Source: Escherichia coli (lineage in GTDB: Bacteria; Pseudomonadota; Gammaproteobacteria; Enterobacterales; Enterobacteriaceae). From it: 64,000 nt of DNA. This document shows, piece by piece, positions 23,641-44,514 of the stretch (the stretch's first letter is position 1; each line of letters begins with the position of its first letter). The notes under the pieces were generated by a model, which saw only the letters and a list, made by a program, of their open reading frames with translations, made no database searches and was not told where the DNA came from. The position numbers and the translations under genes are program-made. The stretch lies in the NCBI RefSeq assembly GCF_044324875.1, contig NZ_CP172185.1, one strand, 5' to 3'.

Positions 23641-24813
23641 TTATTTATTTCCTTTTGAACGATTATGCGTAACGCAAAGCATTTCGCAATTATCAGGCTT
23701 ACTTTCACCCCCCTTACTCCATGCGGAAACATGGTCGGCTTCCATTTCTTTCAAAGCCCAGATTTTTGTTTTATTGGCATTATCTGAACTGGCGCAAAGG
23801 GGGCAGTTTGAAATACCTTGTTGCTCCGCTTTATCTGTTTGCCTTTTGTAGGCTTGTTTTTTAATTTTTTCATCAAAAAAGCGAATGTTTAATAAACGTT
23901 TATCAGATTGACCACCTAACACATATTCCCAGATGCCTTTAATGTTTTTTACACTATCATCCTGATATAATTTATTGATTTGCGTGGCTAATTCACCTGG
24001 ATTGTATGGTTTGTCTTTATAGGTTTCGTATAAACGCCCCCATTCCAGTCCGCACATTTCTTTTTTTACCTCGGTAAATGTGGTGTTAACCCAGTCAATC
24101 ACGCTATTGAAATAGGTTTTTAATTCCTTGATATTGTCATCATTACGATGGGCATTCATGTATTCGCTGATATTTCCTTTACTGACCCAGTTTAACGCAC
24201 ATTCTAAAATTTCCTGGCGTTTAACATTACCTTTGATGTAAGCACTCCATTTTTGCACATTTGAATTAGCAGAATTACTGAATTCTGCTTTTGCCAGTGT
24301 AACAAATTTGCCCGAATACACCGCATTCAATAATTCTTGTTCATTTAAAGGGACGCCAGTAATATTAATCGTTTTAAACCATTCTTTAATTTCGCTTTCT
24401 GTACCCTTACATTTGTAAATCAGCAAAGTGGTTTGTTTGATTTTCTCTTGTTGGTCTTGCGGTAAACTATGGAAATAGTATGGCGTGCCTTTATCATCTA
24501 TAATGGCGAATTTTCCGGTAACAAACCGCCCAATACTGGTAATGCGCTGCTGACCATCCAGTACTTCAAATGTATCTTCTGTATCTTTGTCAGGTTGATT
24601 AAAATAAATCAAACCGAGCGGATAACCTTTTAATACTGACTGGATAACTGCCACATCTTTCTTACCGTCTGCATAAATATAATTGCGTTGATATTCGGGC
24701 TGAATGGTAAGCTTTCCTGATAAACCAAACAAGCCTTTTCCCTCCAGTTCATTATAAACAAATCCATCGCACAATTGTTCAACGGTGATTGATGTATCTA
24801 ATTGTGTTTTCAT
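23641..24813 (-). CDS. DUF262 (ParB-like, DGQQR) plus C-terminal HNH nuclease
   Basis: motifs QPEYQR and DGQQR near N-terminus; HNH-like HVSAWSKGG...[10 protein letters not shown] at C-terminus; 15 bp after methyltransferase stop. Confidence 0.6.
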
Positions 24814-24828
24814 TTTTCACTTTTCCTT

Positions 24829-25983
24829 TTATTTATTTTGTGGATTGATGTGTTTAATAAGAATGCGTCCATAAGTACGTTTGCCGTTAATAACTGTACA
24901 CCCACCCCTATCTTCAGAATGTTGAGAATAATTTAAAATCTCCAGTATCTCTTCGGGAGTTGATGCTCGTGTATTACCACTTGCTTGCCAAATAATTTCA
25001 AACTGTTCAGGACAATATTTATCCAAAAAGCTAATTGGCACGCCCATAACTCCTGCATAATCGCTAGGAATACCGTTAGTTCTGGGCACTTCAATAGCAT
25101 CATAATTGTCATATGCCTGATAAGCGTTAGGGTCATTGATAATTTGTTTGTTGTATTTTAAATTATCCGCCATAGACATTAGCTGTAAAGATTGATGCCG
25201 TCTGCCGTGTTCAATATTGGTAAACCAACAAGAGTTACCCAAACGAGTATAATCACCTATATATCCTAGACGCTCCGCTTTTTTCTTATCAGCTTCCCTC
25301 ACATCAGCACCTTGTGGTACAGCAAAAACCATATCATTACCATTCCCAGTAGCACCCAACCAAATTTTATTTCCTTTGATAAGTGGAAAAATCTCTTTAT
25401 AAGTAATAGCATTCATATTACCGATAACGGCAAACTGCTTTTTACCTTCCATAATCCATGCCATAAATTCGCGAAACAGCGAAAAAGGCGGATTGGTGAT
25501 AATTATGTCGCTTTCATCGCGTAGAGCTTTGATTTCATCACTACGAAAATCGCCATCACCCTGCAGGTATTGCCATTTAATATCTTTAAAATCAATTACA
25601 CCATCGTGATTACTGTCTTCGGTTAGCGTGTAAATTTTGCCATGTTTCTGGCTTTTATCACTGTCGTATTGTTCACTTTCGCTTTCAAATAATGATGGCT
25701 GATAAGCTGTGTTTAACTGTTTGGATTGATGAGCGTAGCTGGTACTGATGAGCTTCTTTAATCCAAGTCGTTCAAAGTTTTGTGCAAAATAAAGTGTGAA
25801 ATTGCTCCACTCGGGGTCATCACATGGTAAGAGAATGGTTTTGCCACGAAATACGTCTTTATTGAAATCAAGATAGGCATTCATCTCTTTTTCAATATCA
25901 TGGTATTGGGTGTAAAATTCGTCATTTTTGGCTTTTTTTGCAGCAGAAAGATTACTGTTTTTGGCAGAAATATTCTTTGACAT
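24829..25983 (-). CDS. N6-adenine DNA methyltransferase (NPPF motif)
   Basis: catalytic motif IITNPPF; GGAGG RBS 7 nt upstream. Confidence 0.6.
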   Translation of the reverse strand: MSKNISAKNSNLSAAKKAKNDEFYTQYHDIEKEMNAYLDFNKDVFRGKTILLPCDDPEWSNFTLYFAQNFERLGLKKLISTSYAHQSKQLNTAYQPSLFESESEQYDSDKSQKHGKIYTLTEDSNHDGVIDFKDIKWQYLQGDGDFRSDEIKALRDESDIIITNPPFSLFREFMAWIMEGKKQFAVIGNMNAITYKEIFPLIKGNKIWLGATGNGNDMVFAVPQGADVREADKKKAERLGYIGDYTRLGNSCWFTNIEHGRRHQSLQLMSMADNLKYNKQIINDPNAYQAYDNYDAIEVPRTNGIPSDYAGVMGVPISFLDKYCPEQFEIIWQASGNTRASTPEEILEILNYSQHSEDRGGCTVINGKRTYGRILIKHINPQNK

Positions 25984-26033
25984 TTCAAACCTCCAAAACA
26001 GTATTGAAGGTTTGAAAAAACGGGGTTACATTA

Positions 26034-26152
26034 TGCTTGTTGCTTGTTGCTTGTTGCTTGTTGCTTGTTGCTTGTTGCTTGTTGCTTGTTGCTTGTTGCT
26101 TGTTGCTTGTTGCTTGTTGCTTGTTGCTTGTTGCTTGTTGCTTGTTGCTTGT
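26034..26152. repeat. heptanucleotide microsatellite (TGCTTGT)x17
   Basis: 17 perfect tandem units, 119 bp, beginning 50 bp upstream of the methyltransferase ATG. Confidence 0.9.
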
Positions 26153-26211
26153 ATTAGCATTGGATTTTCCCTTTTACTTGTCAAGTATTTTCTTTTGGAT
26201 TCTGAAGTTTT

Positions 26212-28944: not shown

Positions 28945-29187
28945 TGTCGCTTCGGCGACCACCAATGTTCCATGAGGCCTGTGAGGAACGCCTTCGGGTG
29001 GCCCACGTCGCTCCGGCGACCACCAATGCTCCATCTGACCTGTGAGGAGCGCCTTCGGGTGGTCAGTTTTACACCTCCGTAGCCTGAAAGGAGCTGTGCG
29101 TGCTGATGGGATATGTTCCCGGAAGTACGGGTAAATCTGCACACCTTTGCGAGCAGATGTCACCACGGTTTACGTGATGATGAAGGC
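28945..29187. repeat. 244-bp direct repeat copy A with internal 48-bp tandem sub-repeat
   Basis: about 95 percent identical to 31740-31983. Confidence 0.8.
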
Positions 29188-31739: not shown

Positions 31740-31983
31740 TGTCGCTTCGGCGACCACCAATGTTCCATGTGGCCTGTGAGGAACGCCTTCGGGTGGCCCA
31801 CGTCGCTCCGGCGACCACCAATGCTTCATCTGACCTGTGAGGAGCGCCTTCGGGTGGTCAGTTTTACACCTCCTGAGCCTGAAAGGAGCTGTGCGTGCTG
31901 AAGGGATATGTTCCCGGAAGTACGGGCAAATCTGCGCACCTTTGAGAGCAGATGTCACTGCGGTTTTCCGTGATGATGAAGGC
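31740..31983. repeat. 244-bp direct repeat copy B
   Basis: pairs with 28945-29187. Confidence 0.8.
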
Positions 31984-33331: not shown

Positions 33332-33884
33332 CTGTCTTTGTTCATGGCTTTTCAACAGACCGTTATGCTTTCGCCACCACATGGTAAGGCGGGTCTGATT
33401 TTACTGTTAACCGTACGGTTCACTCTCATACCGTACGGTGGGAGTGAACCCTTTTCATTAAGGACACTCTCATGAAAACGAAAACTTCTGCACCTGCTGT
33501 ATATGTTGGTACCTGGGCTAAATACAACAATGGCAGCATAGAAGGATGCTGGTTTAATGATTTAACCGTTTTTGAAACTGAAAGCGATTTTTTATCTGCG
33601 GCCCGTAAGTTTCATCAGGATGAAAAAGATCCTGAATTTATGTACCAGGATTATGAAAACTTTCCTTCGGGAATGGCTTCAGTGCAAAATGGCATCTGAA
33701 TCGATCGCAGTTTGGCATTCGAATCGATCATGATTTGGCATCCATCTCCGATCACAGTTTGGCATCACAATCGATCACGATTTGGCATGCTTCCGATCAT
33801 TGATTGGCATCCTGCCAGTCACTCCGGGAATTAACTCTTTTCACCACAGTCTCCATTGCCGTGTTTAAACCAGTGGAGACGTCA

Positions 33885-39268: not shown

Positions 39269-42184
39269 TTACTGAGTCAGTTTTTTTATCAGGTCGTGAA
39301 TTTTATCACCTGAAAACTGGGTCATGAAAGTTATCTTTATGGATTTACTGATTTGTTCGAAGAGTTTCTGTGCATGTTTTATTTTATCGCGTTCTTCATG
39401 TCTGAGTTCACGTTTGCCATCAACATTTTTGGTTTCAATAATAAGGTTCAGATAATCACCCTTTGACGTGTTTACAACATAAGCGAAGTCAGGGGAGTAA
39501 GTGTATCCTCCCGCTACAGGAATTTTTATTGAATTTTTGGGGATCTTTGTGAAGACAATGACTGACCTGACCTCACCCTCTGTCATATTGAGTTTTTCAA
39601 GTTCTGAATCATAAAATACTTCTTCAAAAAGATAAGAGTCCAGTGGAGGGCTTGTATTATCCTGTAAAACGCCAAGATCACTTGACAATACATCAGCAAG
39701 ATAACCGCCGTCTGCATTGGTGAATTTCGTGGGATGGACAGTTCCTGATATTACATTATACCCAAGGCTGAATTTACTGAACGAGTTATTAAGCAAATAC
39801 TTGCTGAAACCAGATTTAATTTTTCTGATTGTCTGAATGTTAAGGTATTCAGTTATATTTATGATGTCTTTTATATCACAAAAAACCTTATGCATGGTGT
39901 CATGTTTGACAAAAATAGTCTGTGATAATTTATCAAGGAATTCACGATAGCTCATTGTGTTTATTTTGTGAAAATTATCCTCATCAACACTGAGAATGCT
40001 TTTCGACATTGCCGTATCATTATGGATATAAATTCTTTCAATACGAGTATGAGCACCGGATTTGGTAAATCTGTCTGCTTCTTCCAGCATAAACGCTCTG
40101 AAAAGGGATAAAAACTCACGTTCACTTTTTATTTTATACTCAATCACGACCTTTTGATTGATCAAGTCCCATAGTTCTTTCAGCTCACTGAACTTACCAA
40201 CACGCATTTTAGTGCGTCTTTTTCCATCAGAGGCTTTTTTTATTTTGCCTGGTTTCACTCCTGCAGGAAATGCTGCCGGATATCTGGCTTTTAAGCGGCT
40301 ATAGGCATCTGAATCTTTGAAGTTATCATTATCATCAATGATCTCATCATCAAAAATTTCATTCAAGAGTGTTCTGGAGGAAAGCTCCGGATATTGAGAC
40401 AGGATTTTATCCTTAAGTTCCTGAGTAAACTTACCTGGAACAGTCTCTTTGAAAGAACTATCGTTGATCTCTTTGACAAGAGAATCGACAAAATCTTTTT
40501 CTGTAAAATCAACATAATAGTTGAGGGTAAAATTGCGGTCTTTCACACGACACATGTATTCATTCACCGGAAGACGTAAACCACGCCCTACTTCCTGAAG
40601 TTTAGATGTGGTGCTACCGCTCGAACGGAGCTTACAAATCTGAAAGACATTTGGGTTATCCCATCCCTCACGCAACGTCCATTTAGAGAAAATGAAACGG
40701 CGAGGATTTTCTAAAGACAATAGAAGCTCTTTATCATGAAGGATTTCGTTGATTTCCTGCTCAATTTTATCATCTTTATCACTATTATCTTTTGAAAAAT
40801 AACCACCATGAACAGAAGATATATCCTTAACAGTTTTTTCAAGGTAGTTTCTGTAAAACTCATCTTTTTCTGTTTTTAACAGTTCATTTGCTTCTGCCAA
40901 AACGTATTCTTCGAACTTAGTTTTCAGGCTTCCTGCAATATCATTACCATCACGATAGCCTTCAATGTCATCAATGAAGAAAAGAGTAAGAGGTTTTATG
41001 CGTGGCCTTTGTGTCAGATACTCTTTTTCTAACTTAAAGTGTTCTTTGACAGCTTTACGTATCATGTTATCAGCAAGTGTCTGATCGTAAGAATAGGGGT
41101 TTATCGAACTACCAATTTTTAGCTCAATACCATTACTCAACACTGCTGTATTCTTATTTAAAGCATCAAGAGTTAAATCATGGATCGCACTATGCGTCTT
41201 AGATAGTGATTCACCTTTGGCTAACTTAAAAATTTTTTTATTATTATTTTCGTTCAGTTCAAATGTAGCTTCTTTTCCGTCAGATTTGACCAACTTGAGG
41301 TTGGCATTACCATCACCAACTATATCCTCAATGTATGCATCAATACCTTTAACAAGATCTTCATTGAAGGCATCTACGGCTGTAAGACGATAAACTAAGT
41401 TCTTATATCCTTCACTAAAGGTTGCACCATAGCGGATGATATATTGGGCATTAAATTTTTGAATATGTTCCCATGTCTTTTTACCAGTAGGAAATTTATG
41501 AGGCTCATCAATGATAATGAATGGTTTTATCGCACTAAGTGCAGAAAATGGGGTATCAAACTGATTATTAAGCAAGCCAACATCATAAGTGTCAGTTAAA
41601 GACTTAGAGTTAATCATCCCTGAATTGATCACAAGAATGTGTATATATTTCTTATTGAAATTACTTGCTTCAACAAAATCATGGATAGCTTGAGGCATAT
41701 ACGATTTTGTATTTTTACCCGAACGTTTCTGACTTTCAACAACGTAAGTCTTTAGTTCACGCTCGTAATCATCTCGAAAGTGTTCTTTTATAGCATCGCT
41801 TTTTAAAAAGTTAACGGTTCCGGCTTTGATCGATAGGGTAGGAACAATGATGATAAACTTGTTAATACCAAATGATTTGTTCAGGTCAAAAATTGTTTTG
41901 GTGTAAGTATAAGTTTTACCTGTACCTGTCTCCATAGAAACATCAATTACGTTGCTTTTAGCATCGTAATTATCTTTTGAGTGCTCAATACCATTGAACT
42001 CCTGAACATTTTTTATGTTGTTGTAGTATTGTTGTTCAGATAGATTCAGTTCTGGATTAGCTAACAGGCGAATTGCAACATGATCCGTCTGATGAGGTAT
42101 GGCGGATACAAAGACATTCATTACCGAATCAACGCCAGCCTTTTGATGAGGTAAATTTTTTTCGAATGTGAACCCTTTAGACAT
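39269..42184 (-). CDS. res: Type III restriction enzyme, Res subunit
   Basis: 971 aa; Walker A METGTGKT; DEAH-like IIIDEPH; immediately downstream of mod. Confidence 0.8.
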   Translation of the reverse strand: MSKGFTFEKNLPHQKAGVDSVMNVFVSAIPHQTDHVAIRLLANPELNLSEQQYYNNIKNVQEFNGIEHSKDNYDAKSNVIDVSMETGTGKTYTYTKTIFDLNKSFGINKFIIIVPTLSIKAGTVNFLKSDAIKEHFRDDYERELKTYVVESQKRSGKNTKSYMPQAIHDFVEASNFNKKYIHILVINSGMINSKSLTDTYDVGLLNNQFDTPFSALSAIKPFIIIDEPHKFPTGKKTWEHIQKFNAQYIIRYGATFSEGYKNLVYRLTAVDAFNEDLVKGIDAYIEDIVGDGNANLKLVKSDGKEATFELNENNNKKIFKLAKGESLSKTHSAIHDLTLDALNKNTAVLSNGIELKIGSSINPYSYDQTLADNMIRKAVKEHFKLEKEYLTQRPRIKPLTLFFIDDIEGYRDGNDIAGSLKTKFEEYVLAEANELLKTEKDEFYRNYLEKTVKDISSVHGGYFSKDNSDKDDKIEQEINEILHDKELLLSLENPRRFIFSKWTLREGWDNPNVFQICKLRSSGSTTSKLQEVGRGLRLPVNEYMCRVKDRNFTLNYYVDFTEKDFVDSLVKEINDSSFKETVPGKFTQELKDKILSQYPELSSRTLLNEIFDDEIIDDNDNFKDSDAYSRLKARYPAAFPAGVKPGKIKKASDGKRRTKMRVGKFSELKELWDLINQKVVIEYKIKSEREFLSLFRAFMLEEADRFTKSGAHTRIERIYIHNDTAMSKSILSVDEDNFHKINTMSYREFLDKLSQTIFVKHDTMHKVFCDIKDIINITEYLNIQTIRKIKSGFSKYLLNNSFSKFSLGYNVISGTVHPTKFTNADGGYLADVLSSDLGVLQDNTSPPLDSYLFEEVFYDSELEKLNMTEGEVRSVIVFTKIPKNSIKIPVAGGYTYSPDFAYVVNTSKGDYLNLIIETKNVDGKRELRHEERDKIKHAQKLFEQISKSIKITFMTQFSGDKIHDLIKKLTQ

Positions 42185-42186
42185 GA

Positions 42187-44223
42187 TTAGTTTCTTACCA
42201 CCAAATCTAAATCAATAGATTTTTTATTAGCATAACTTTTTAGTGCTTCATTGAGTTCCATCTGTTTCGCACTTTCGAAGTTGCTGCCATAAAATACAAC
42301 TTTGTTAGGGGCAAAGTCTTTGTCTGCATCCAGCTTTTGAAGTAAAGCTTTCAAAGCCTCACTTGTGAAATTAGGCGCAATTAGATATAGCCGACCATCG
42401 CACAAGTGTGCTTTGTAGCCATTAAGGTCAATATCTTCAATTGGTGTTGTTAGCAAGCTGCCATCATACACGCACCATGTCGTCAATAGAGTGTCATACT
42501 GCTCTGGTGTCAATACAGCATCGTCAAAGAAACTAAGATTAGAAAGCGTAAGTTCAGACTCATCTTTCACTCGAAAATTATGAACTGTTTCAAATATTTT
42601 AAATCCCAAATCTCCATTATAATTAGGATTATCTTTTTTCAGCTTTTTTCCTGCCTTAATAATTCTGTCTTTTGTTATATTGAAGATGGATTTATACCCT
42701 TCTTTATAGGCTTGTTTCTTTTTATCTGTTTCTTCATCTAATTGAACACAGATGAAGTTTCTTTTCCTGCCGTCTTCAATATTTAACTCCAGAATACCAT
42801 GAGCTGTAGTTCCAGAGCCAGCAAAAAAGTCAAGATAAATGTCTTTATCTTCGGTTTTTACTGAACCAAATAGTGTTTTTATTAAACTTGTTGGCTTCGG
42901 GTAGGAGAAATATCCTTTCCCACCAAAAAGATTTTCAACCTCAACACCACCATCACTTTTAGTTGAAATAATTGATCTTAGTAAAAACTCTTCAACTTCA
43001 TCTAAAAATTTAACCGAACTGGGTTGGGTGTTTTCTGTACTGGCAAACCAAATTCCACCACAAATAACGCTACCATCATGTAGTTTTTTGATATCTGCAT
43101 ACTTTCCATCTATTCTTTTTGCAATATGATTAAAAGTGCCTTCTTTCCAACGCCAGCCTCTGTCTGGGATTTTGACAGGGTTATTAGTCAAAGGGTGCAA
43201 TACTTCATACGTGGGTCCAAATGAATCTGCATTAGGCCAGCTCATATTAATTTTACCCCATGGCCTATAATCTTCGTTCAAACAGTTGTAAAGAGTAATT
43301 CCACGATCATATCCGTTGGAGCTGTAGAATTTTTTGAGTTGCTGCTCTGCTTTATCTAATGGCACCTTCTCCTTTTTTAACTTTTCAATAAACTGATATA
43401 CATCATCAATACCATCTTTCCGCATTAAAAATTCTTTACTTATTTCGTTATTCTTCGCATAAGCAAGGATGTACTCATGGATATTACCAATACCCTTATC
43501 ATTTTTAGGGATACGTTTATTCCATACAATATTTTCTATGAAATTTGCTTCGCCAAAAATTTCATCACAAATAGTTTTAAGTTGATTTAATTCATTTTCG
43601 TCAATCGAAATAAATATCACACCATCTTCACGTAGAAGCTCACGAGCAATATATAAACGAGGATAAATGAACGTTAACCATGCGCTATGGCTGCTTGAAC
43701 CATTCGTGGTAAATTCAAGTATACGTTTAGCCTCATCAAGATCGATACCTGCCAGATCAGAAAGCTGTTCAGGTGTAAACTTGCGATCATCGTTATAGGC
43801 GAATCCATCCTTACCTGTATTGTATGGTGGATCAATGTAAATCATCTTCACCTTTTCAGAGTAAGCATTAACCATATGCTTCAATACTTCGAGGTTATCC
43901 CCTTTGATTAACAGATTCTGACTGTTTTTGTTCTCTTCACGTTGGTTATGGTCTTTATCTTCGGAGAGTAATGTCTTCGGCGGCAAGTTAGCTAACAGAC
44001 GGGCATAGGATTTACCAAGCCAGTTCAGGCTGTATGATTCTTTGGAGAGTTCAACATCCGATGATTTGACGATTTCAAGCAATTTTTCCTGAATGAACGC
44101 TCCATTTTTATCAAAACACTGTGGAAAGTTAGCCTTTAAAATCGCAAGCTGTTTACTGTTTGTGGTTTCAGTTTCAGAGAAAAGAGTTTCTTTTTTCAGT
44201 TGAAATTGGGGTTGTGTATTCAT
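42187..44223 (-). CDS. mod: Type III restriction-modification methyltransferase, Mod subunit
   Basis: 678 aa; DPPY motif (IYIDPPYNTG); AdoMet motif FFAGSGTT; GGAGG RBS. Confidence 0.8.
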   Translation of the reverse strand: MNTQPQFQLKKETLFSETETTNSKQLAILKANFPQCFDKNGAFIQEKLLEIVKSSDVELSKESYSLNWLGKSYARLLANLPPKTLLSEDKDHNQREENKNSQNLLIKGDNLEVLKHMVNAYSEKVKMIYIDPPYNTGKDGFAYNDDRKFTPEQLSDLAGIDLDEAKRILEFTTNGSSSHSAWLTFIYPRLYIARELLREDGVIFISIDENELNQLKTICDEIFGEANFIENIVWNKRIPKNDKGIGNIHEYILAYAKNNEISKEFLMRKDGIDDVYQFIEKLKKEKVPLDKAEQQLKKFYSSNGYDRGITLYNCLNEDYRPWGKINMSWPNADSFGPTYEVLHPLTNNPVKIPDRGWRWKEGTFNHIAKRIDGKYADIKKLHDGSVICGGIWFASTENTQPSSVKFLDEVEEFLLRSIISTKSDGGVEVENLFGGKGYFSYPKPTSLIKTLFGSVKTEDKDIYLDFFAGSGTTAHGILELNIEDGRKRNFICVQLDEETDKKKQAYKEGYKSIFNITKDRIIKAGKKLKKDNPNYNGDLGFKIFETVHNFRVKDESELTLSNLSFFDDAVLTPEQYDTLLTTWCVYDGSLLTTPIEDIDLNGYKAHLCDGRLYLIAPNFTSEALKALLQKLDADKDFAPNKVVFYGSNFESAKQMELNEALKSYANKKSIDLDLVVRN

Positions 44224-44432
44224 AACGCACCTCCAGAATGCACGGAGGTACTTGACGCGGAATTTTTATACAGGCATATTGTTGCGTTGCGTTGCGTTGC
44301 GTTGCGTTGCGTTGCGTTGCGTTTCGTTGCGTTGCGTTGCGTTGCGTTGCGTTGCGTTGCGTTGCGTTGCGTTGCGTTGCGTTGCGTTGCGTTGCGTTGC
44401 GTTGCGTTGCGTTGCGTTGCGTTGCGTTTCAT
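44220..44432 (-). CDS. repeat-encoded leader ORF (QRNAT)n overlapping mod start
   Basis: ATG at 44432 followed by the 5-mer tract; TGA overlaps mod ATG as ATGA. Confidence 0.35.
   Translation of the reverse strand: MKRNATQRNATQRNATQRNATQRNATQRNATQRNATKRNATQRNATQRNATICLYKNSASSTSVHSGGAL
44281..44425. repeat. pentanucleotide microsatellite (GTTGC)x29; GCAAC on mod strand
   Basis: 29 tandem units with one GTTTC variant. Confidence 0.9.
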
Positions 44433-44514
44433 TAAATAGCCTCGAGTTTCGTTTTACAGGTTTTTATTCTAACCTGAATTGTTGATTTTCTGAATAAGTC
44501 TGACGTCAGTTGTT

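Follow-up and report, generated by a model that had tools for sequence, protein, structure and literature searches.

A hypervariable GCAAC tract within the leader ORF of a Type III mod gene as a candidate phase-variation switch in Escherichia coli

The window analyzed here is a stretch of 64,000 nucleotides from Escherichia coli (contig NZ_CP172185.1 of assembly GCF_044324875.1) that carries the mod and res genes of a restriction-modification (R-M) system of Type III and, directly upstream of mod, a long pentanucleotide tract, (GCAAC)n, within a small leader open reading frame (ORF). This tract is probably a contingency (phase-variation) switch of a horizontally acquired Type III R-M system that would act through translational coupling, with the reading frame in which ribosomes leave the tract setting access to the mod start. 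Such coupling had been suggested by a first-pass annotation of the window, and we find it to be the best-supported reading of a mechanism that is putative in E. coli, based on the Shine-Dalgarno (SD) sequence of the leader, the predicted sequestration of the mod SD, the appearance of the same design in four lineages and again at another locus of the window, and methylation phenotypes reported for Bibersteinia trehalosi. The same annotation had set the tract apart from the intragenic repeats of Haemophilus and Neisseria mod genes. It does differ from these, but its layout is not new: judging from its organization, the locus belongs to the upstream-tract type already published, with the same repeat, for modO of Moraxella catarrhalis and M.Btr192II of B. 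trehalosi. What appears to be new is the mechanistic reading as leader-frame coupling with SD unmasking, since neither a leader ORF nor translational coupling is proposed in the consulted sections of the modO, M.Btr192II and Type III survey papers or of recent reviews. The features of the locus, all on the minus strand, are the following:

44466 to 44494, minus strand: promoter-like TTCAGA-17-TAGAAT located 5' of the leader, with 9 of 12 consensus matches, kept in all E. coli loci
44440 to 44443, minus strand: leader SD GAGG, 7 nt 5' of the leader ATG, as read from the sequence
44220 to 44432, minus strand: leader ORF of 70 codons at the current tract length (MKRNATQRNATQ...GGAL), from the ORF table
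44281 to 44430, minus strand: (GCAAC)n tract, with a variant GAAAC unit at 44325-44321
44266 to 44268, minus strand: TAA closing the leader if n mod 3 = 2, in the mod frame and 45 nt 5' of the mod ATG, invariant in all loci
44227 to 44251, minus strand: predicted 9-bp hairpin with arms GUACCUCCG (44251-44243) and UGGAGGUGC (44235-44227) over the mod SD GGAGG (44234-44230)
44174 to 44176, minus strand: TGA closing the leader if n mod 3 = 1, 47 nt into mod, from frame reconstruction
42187 to 44223, minus strand: Type III mod, 678 amino acids, the same protein as WP_021577922.1, with Pfam domains recorded on this exact protein
39269 to 42184, minus strand: Type III res, 971 amino acids, which begins 2 nt past the mod stop codon (TAA TC ATG), assigned by NCBIfam NF012027

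On the minus strand, the leader ATG (44432-44430) leads via AAAC into 29 GCAAC units (44425-44281), and Tandem Repeats Finder reports a repeat of period 5 at 44281-44428 with 29.6 copies, 98% matches and a score of 289. Counting the initial GAAAC, whose G is shared with the leader ATG, brings the window to 30 units. A perfect pentamer array of 150 nt is far beyond chance expectation. The tract sits between the leader ATG and the mod start, and its unit length of 5 nt is not a multiple of 3. In the window (n mod 3 = 0), the TGA of the leader (44222-44220) overlaps the mod ATG (44223-44221) as ATGA. Rebuilding the frames with one more unit moves the end of the leader to the TGA at 44176-44174, 47 nt inside mod, and with two more units the leader enters the mod frame and ends at the TAA at 44268-44266. 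The overrun-frame leader is annotated as an overlapping hypothetical protein in two of the loci (L002 and L004). With the mod frame closed by the TAA at -45, Mod is not extendable by any tract length. The first-pass annotation had thus described this architecture correctly, i.e., the ATG heading 29 units with one variant, the 70-codon leader overlapping the mod start, the two other leader ends, and the inability of the tract to extend Mod.

Between tract and gene lies a predicted hairpin whose 3' arm is formed by the mod SD itself (GGAGG, 6 nt from the mod ATG). For this motif, the predicted unpaired probability is 0.000, and no control out of 300 with shuffled flanks came as low. At locus L009, natural variation replaces a G-U pair of the hairpin by a G-C pair. 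The early-stop TAA is positioned ca. 15 nt before the 5' arm, so that a ribosome halting there should leave the hairpin closed; from the layout, a ribosome in the ATGA frame has to traverse it. The earlier suggestion that the mod gene's own GGAGG might render any effect of the tract merely quantitative is therefore not borne out by the prediction, in which this motif is base-paired. As far as sequence can tell, the locus has the parts of a coupled leader-ORF switch, namely a leader ATG with its SD, a frame that ends at the mod start, and an occluded downstream SD. A consensus scan of the coding strand found no promoter between the tract and mod, and the only promoter-like site that it did detect on this strand (a consensus match only) is located 5' of the leader SD. 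We also considered the spacer hairpin as an intrinsic terminator and rejected this idea because no U run follows the hairpin, and an Rfam search returned no relevant family. Separately, the plus strand of the spacer (44252-44280) carries a promoter-like TTGACG-17-CATATT, again a consensus match only, which is oriented antisense through the tract and the leader.

Slipped-strand mispairing would alter the number of GCAAC units at this locus, and mismatch repair largely fails to act on 5-nt loops. A transcript started upstream would carry the leader ORF, which would always be translated through the tract, all frames of the tract being free of stop codons, and the unit number modulo 3 would determine where the leader ribosome stops. 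In the window state (n mod 3 = 0), this ribosome would melt the 9-bp hairpin and terminate on the mod start, and Mod would be made by coupling or re-initiation (ON). With n mod 3 = 2, it would stop at the TAA 45 nt upstream with the hairpin closed, and mod would be translated poorly (OFF). The third frame would overrun 47 nt into mod, for which intermediate or low expression is expected. Untranslated mod-res RNA would be lost via polarity, which would make the switch visible at the mRNA level, too. Since Type III Res requires Mod for its activity, the OFF state would also silence restriction and hence not be lethal.

The tract is hypermutable among natural isolates, varying in length while its flanks stay constant. 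Across 20 E. coli alleles, each with both conserved flanks present, we counted 6, 8, 14, 15, 16, 20, 25, 26 (three times), 30, 31, 34, 35, 38 (twice), 41, 42 and 48 units besides one tract of 139 nt, and strains with merely 0 to 3 flank substitutions in 3,550 bp relative to the window range from 14 to 48 units. Among named strains, APEC E19035 has 48 units, the L161 strain 42, 2013C-3033 38, TUM1886 26 and 2015C-3121 20. Two of the alleles were added from a homology search with the leader peptide, which gave only these two matches. In every intact locus, the tract is long and 98% to 100% pure, and this is also true across alleles of target recognition: loci L009 to L011 encode a different Mod target-recognition region behind the same leader, tract and spacer. 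Such allelic target-recognition variation is typical of phasevarion genes and is the only trait of this kind seen at the E. coli locus. The 139-nt tract (L157, 705-843, from a draft genome) results from a 1-nt deletion within the repeat, i.e., a frame change without slippage of a unit. In P0002, the annotated leader peptide shifts frame where the spacer carries its A5 run (TATAAAAATT), which could reflect either a sequencing error or another slippery site. Several E. coli copies of the locus are decaying, with IS1 inserted at the 5' end of mod in L008 (3454-4151; tract of 8 units), a frameshifted mod in L009 (3440-5397) and a frameshifted res in L006 (5547-6831).

The same design recurs outside E. 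coli. A scan for (GCAAC)6 using one genome per species yielded 120 loci, and a Mod homologue adjoins the tract at 4 of them. The Acinetobacter locus shows the classical arrangement with the tract inside the mod ORF, and the leader arrangement is found in M. catarrhalis Z7574 (L124), B. trehalosi (L070) and R. caecimuris. The window Mod shares 45% identity over 659 aligned positions (amino acids 9-643, tblastn) with M. catarrhalis ModO and has partial tblastn matches to the Mods of B. trehalosi and R. caecimuris. In all four lineages, including E. coli, an AGGA or GAGG motif precedes the leader ATG by 7 nt, and the SD-like motif and ATG are conserved though neighboring bases vary. The mod frame is closed in all four, and in each of them exactly one leader frame reaches the mod start (+1 in E. 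coli, +1 with ATGA in M. catarrhalis, +10 in both B. trehalosi and R. caecimuris). More generally, a non-gene frame ending within -9 to +12 of the downstream start is present in 10 of the 16 GCAAC tracts of the leader type, compared to 29% under an empirical null drawn from the same 120 loci (p = 0.006), and 6 of these 10 precede DNA methyltransferases as judged by eye and by homology to ORFs of the window.

Two further relatives depart from this pattern in other ways. In Moraxella equi (L133, 1141-1500), ca. 44 copies of a heptamer, TTCGCAA, lie 5' of a mod gene disrupted by IS630 and after a TTGACA-16-TACAAT sequence, and the position of the M. catarrhalis leader ATG reads ATA, without an SD. 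Another locus (L138, 1-80) encodes a Mod relative that is 77% identical to ModO over the N-terminal region and has just (CACAG)3 in the homologous leader, the stop of which forms a TGATG overlap with the mod start; the allele may be locked ON.

Published experiments on two of these systems allow the model to be compared with phenotypes. For M.Btr192II of B. trehalosi, a (CGCAA)n tract is described to end 43 bp 5' of the ATG, and methylation was present at 15 copies and absent at 14 and 17 in strains with an identical methyltransferase that, according to the authors, show no further differences within the ORF or the preceding 1 kb; what the tract does, they say, "warrants further study" (PMC4996451, sections consulted). 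Our locus L070 is the M.Btr192II locus as identified by the cloning primers. With its flanks, 15 copies correspond to the read-through frame and both 14 and 17 copies to the frame stopping at -24, and the methylation phenotypes thus match the leader-frame prediction on the assumptions that strains 188-192 and DSM 23101 have the same leader and that the copy counts include the "imperfect copy at the end", the latter being favored by the authors' statement that the lengths differ. For M. catarrhalis modO (McaC031IP), to which our locus L124 corresponds, a (CAACG)n tract upstream of the annotated ORF is reported with 12 to 33 units among strains, six target-recognition alleles (modO1-6) and a 12- to 21-fold switch in mRNA, for which the authors hypothesize transcriptional control; in strain 23246, 9, 10 and 11 repeats gave relative mRNA levels of 1.00, 20.66 and 1.75 (Blakeway 2018, PMC6241649, and Blakeway 2020, PMC7302503, sections consulted). 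The primers of this quantitative reverse transcription PCR map to the 3' end of the gene, which makes the mRNA result compatible with polarity.

Compared directly to the E. coli locus, M. catarrhalis modO shares the Type III mod, the same repeat upstream of its start ((CAACG)n being (GCAAC)n on the sense strand), and a leader that overlaps the mod start as ATGA in one of its frames and meets stops in the mod frame. It differs by a spacer of 42 nt instead of 57 nt with unrelated sequence, by a hairpin that encloses the AUG and is unexceptional relative to controls, and by a strong promoter-like site abutting the tract. M.Btr192II likewise combines a Type III mod with an upstream tract, a leader ORF with SD, and one read-through frame (at +10), but has neither the ATGA overlap nor an exceptional SD hairpin.

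A number of observations weigh against leader-frame coupling, and several of them would favor control at the level of transcription, in which a promoter-proximal or initially transcribed tract alters initiation or elongation (e.g., by helical phasing) and the leader ORF is incidental. Promoter-like sites of the form TTGACA-16/18-TAnnnT directly adjoin the tract in M. catarrhalis (TTGACA-17-TACCAT), R. caecimuris, B. trehalosi and M. equi; if these are real promoters, transcription would start inside the tract and the leader ATG would be left untranscribed there. Strong SD occlusion is confined to the two E. coli loci and is unexceptional in M. catarrhalis, B. trehalosi and R. caecimuris. M. 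equi keeps its ca. 44 heptamer units without leader ATG or SD, the modO switch was measured as mRNA, and the low, high and low levels at 9, 10 and 11 modO repeats also fit a 2-unit (10-bp) period. We nevertheless consider transcriptional control unlikely. The active and inactive B. trehalosi strains with 15 and 17 copies differ by 10 bp or one helical turn, which excludes helical phasing, and the off/on/off pattern at 14, 15 and 17 copies excludes a monotonic effect of length. Tracts of 30 to 240 bp would be too long as a spacer between -35 and -10 elements, the only promoter-like site on the E. coli coding strand is upstream of the leader SD, and the M. equi mod is broken by an insertion sequence. 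A purely transcriptional effect would also leave unexplained the conserved spacing of SD, 7 nt and ATG, the enrichment of coupling frames, and the SD hairpins at both E. coli loci.

Other points concern E. coli itself. Of the 20 alleles, 11 have the early stop (TAA), 5 the ATGA overlap and 4 the overrun, without significant bias (chi-square ca. 4.3, p ca. 0.12, calculated by hand), and a literature search found no published data for this E. coli locus on within-culture tract heterogeneity or length-linked expression. An early skew in frame (8 of 12 alleles in one frame) and in parity (10 of 12 with an even unit number) lost significance at 20 alleles and is uninformative as to which frame is ON. 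The presence of all three frame classes in natural isolates, the canonical mod SD 6 nt from the ATG and the decay of L008, L009 and L006 would suit a mere passenger, i.e., a hypervariable microsatellite without regulatory effect in E. coli, next to a mod gene expressed from its own strong GGAGG. This is quite unlikely in our view given the full base-pairing predicted for this SD, the length and purity of the tract in every intact locus across target-recognition alleles, and the homologous loci of Moraxella and Bibersteinia that change expression or methylation with tract length.

The opposite polarity, in which ribosomes crossing or terminating on the mod ribosome-binding site would block initiation so that the early-stop frame is ON and the ATGA frame OFF, draws on two observations: the early-stop class is the commonest in E. 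coli isolates (11 of 20), and at the published modO numbers with a 110-bp flank, the high variant (10 repeats) falls into the frame that stops 39 nt upstream and not into the ATGA frame. The register of modO is uncertain, however, because the published amplicon sizes imply an inter-primer flank of 112 bp and we find 110 bp in Z7574 and the other M. catarrhalis strains (four in total; L148 and L149 share both the sequence from forward primer to tract and the 42-nt spacer, L132 shares the spacer); an allele matching the modO reverse primer (MTLRTEHLFA) was not found. If the true numbers were 10, 11 and 12, then the leader stops at -39, +1 and -28 would correspond to mRNA levels of 1.0, 20.7 and 1.75, an exact fit to leader-frame coupling. 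B. trehalosi maps inversely to the opposite polarity, with the read-through frame active, and the hairpin over the SD would stay closed upon an early stop. Downstream initiation is moreover usually favored and not blocked by overlapping junctions such as ATGA and TGATG, and we regard this reversal as very unlikely. A last point against leader-frame coupling is B. trehalosi strain 190, which is inactive despite 15 copies, though its upstream region carries other changes as well and its target-recognition domain is not the same (PMC4996451, sections consulted).

The window contains a second repeat locus of the same design, located 5' of a gene encoding an EcoRI-family adenine methyltransferase, with the following features:

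25983 to 26186, minus strand: second switch, same design
26186-26181, minus strand: TTGACA of the second switch, as read from the sequence
26160-26158, minus strand: second leader ATG, with the SD AAGGGA 7 nt upstream
26152-26034, minus strand: (ACAAGCA)17 in the second leader
26017-26004 with 25996-25983, minus strand: predicted 14-bp hairpin over the SD GGAGG (25994-25990)
25987-25985, minus strand: TGA stop of the coupling frame, at -4
24829 to 25983, minus strand: EcoRI-family adenine methyltransferase gene, with its ATG at 25983
23641 to 24813, minus strand: HNH endonuclease family gene, following the methyltransferase gene

Two frames of the second leader stop at -45 and -50, and the third crosses the hairpin to stop at -4. 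The methyltransferase SD has a predicted probability of being unpaired of 0.001, and 1% of controls were as low. The heptamer tract varies as well, with 17 units in the window and 14, 12, 11, 9, 2 and 2 units in six other E. coli genomes (range 2-14). In loci L165 and L166, the TTGACA reads CTGACA and the spacing between SD and ATG is 6 nt, with SD, ATG and hairpin kept, a pattern that points to better conservation of the second leader SD and ATG than of the -35-like hexamer. NCBIfam has no family for this methyltransferase or its neighbor gene. Homologous methyltransferases with GCAAC leaders are encoded by Spirabiliibacterium and another Pasteurellaceae bacterium, and in Haemophilus influenzae a (CAAG)32 tract has been reported 58 bp 5' of an EcoRI-type methylase (Power 2009).

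The classical phasevarion methyltransferases (modA, modB and modD of Haemophilus and Neisseria, modM and modN of Moraxella, and modP and modQ of A. pleuropneumoniae) resemble the E. coli locus by combining simple sequence repeats with a Type III Mod, allelic target-recognition domains and a Res that depends on Mod. The repeats driving their ON/OFF switching are placed inside the ORF just past the start, however, where a frameshift truncates Mod, and the E. coli tract fuses to Mod in no frame. A further parallel may be lex2A of H. influenzae, a small upstream ORF bearing a tetranucleotide tract, with the enzyme, in that case a glycosyltransferase, made from the next gene lex2B. Within E. coli, M.Eco131I from Shiga toxin-producing strains (STEC) is also a Type III mod with a variable tract, but differs by having its heptamer repeat, CAGCGAC[n], in the annotated mod ORF, the length of which varies between strains and within a culture (Atack 2018, PMC5909438, sections consulted). 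In the parts consulted, the same survey sought repeats only within mod ORFs and lists this single E. coli case (PMC5909438), and a leader tract like the one described here would have been missed for this reason.

The system downstream of the pentanucleotide tract is EcoP15I-like as judged from its proteins, given that Mod domains and an adjoining downstream Res are both present: PF01555 (N6_N4_Mtase) and PF18273 (T3RM_EcoP15I_C) are recorded in Pfam for the identical Mod protein, and Res scores 1073.8 bits against NF012027, the equivalog model of Type III endonucleases, at a cut-off of 564. The Mod proteins of the window and of locus L003 are one and the same. With a GC content of 36%, the block differs from the roughly 50% of the surrounding DNA, and it forms part of a chromosomal island of E. 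coli that also carries an integrase, TraF, ArdA, CcdAB and IS remnants. The locus is carried by 11 of 5,426 complete E. coli genomes, and for the exact Mod protein, the index of a public assembly collection lists 1,222 blocks. Elsewhere in the window, we noted two near-identical arrays with a period of 61 bp and a common consensus (28946-29062 and 31741-31857; 1.9 copies each, ca. 2.8 kb apart) and, at 33690-33811, imperfect tandem repeats of 23 bp and 47 bp (TGGCATC...CGATCACAATT) with an iteron-like look.

Repeat-driven switching is considered rare in E. coli, and the only E. coli methyltransferase example found in our literature search is the one with the in-gene heptamer of some STEC strains. 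A single mobile E. coli island holds two repeat-associated methyltransferases of the same switch design. The leader-frame model gives a concrete and testable account of a point that work on two published systems had left unanswered and, if true, would explain the upstream tracts of both modO and M.Btr192II. On a broader level, we see an even balance of arguments as to whether these loci represent a third mechanistic class of repeat-driven phase variation apart from promoter spacing and in-gene frameshifting, in which the repeat length of an upstream ORF modulo 3 gates the downstream start, in the form of a conserved and horizontally mobile cassette that in Moraxellaceae, Pasteurellaceae and E. 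coli would govern DNA methyltransferases of two kinds, Type III Mod and EcoRI-family enzymes. Surveys restricted to repeats inside methyltransferase ORFs overlook tracts in upstream leaders. If the switch works as proposed, then clonal E. coli populations would be mixed in their restriction barrier and possibly in genome-wide methylation, with a bearing on phage resistance, plasmid uptake and methylome surveys.

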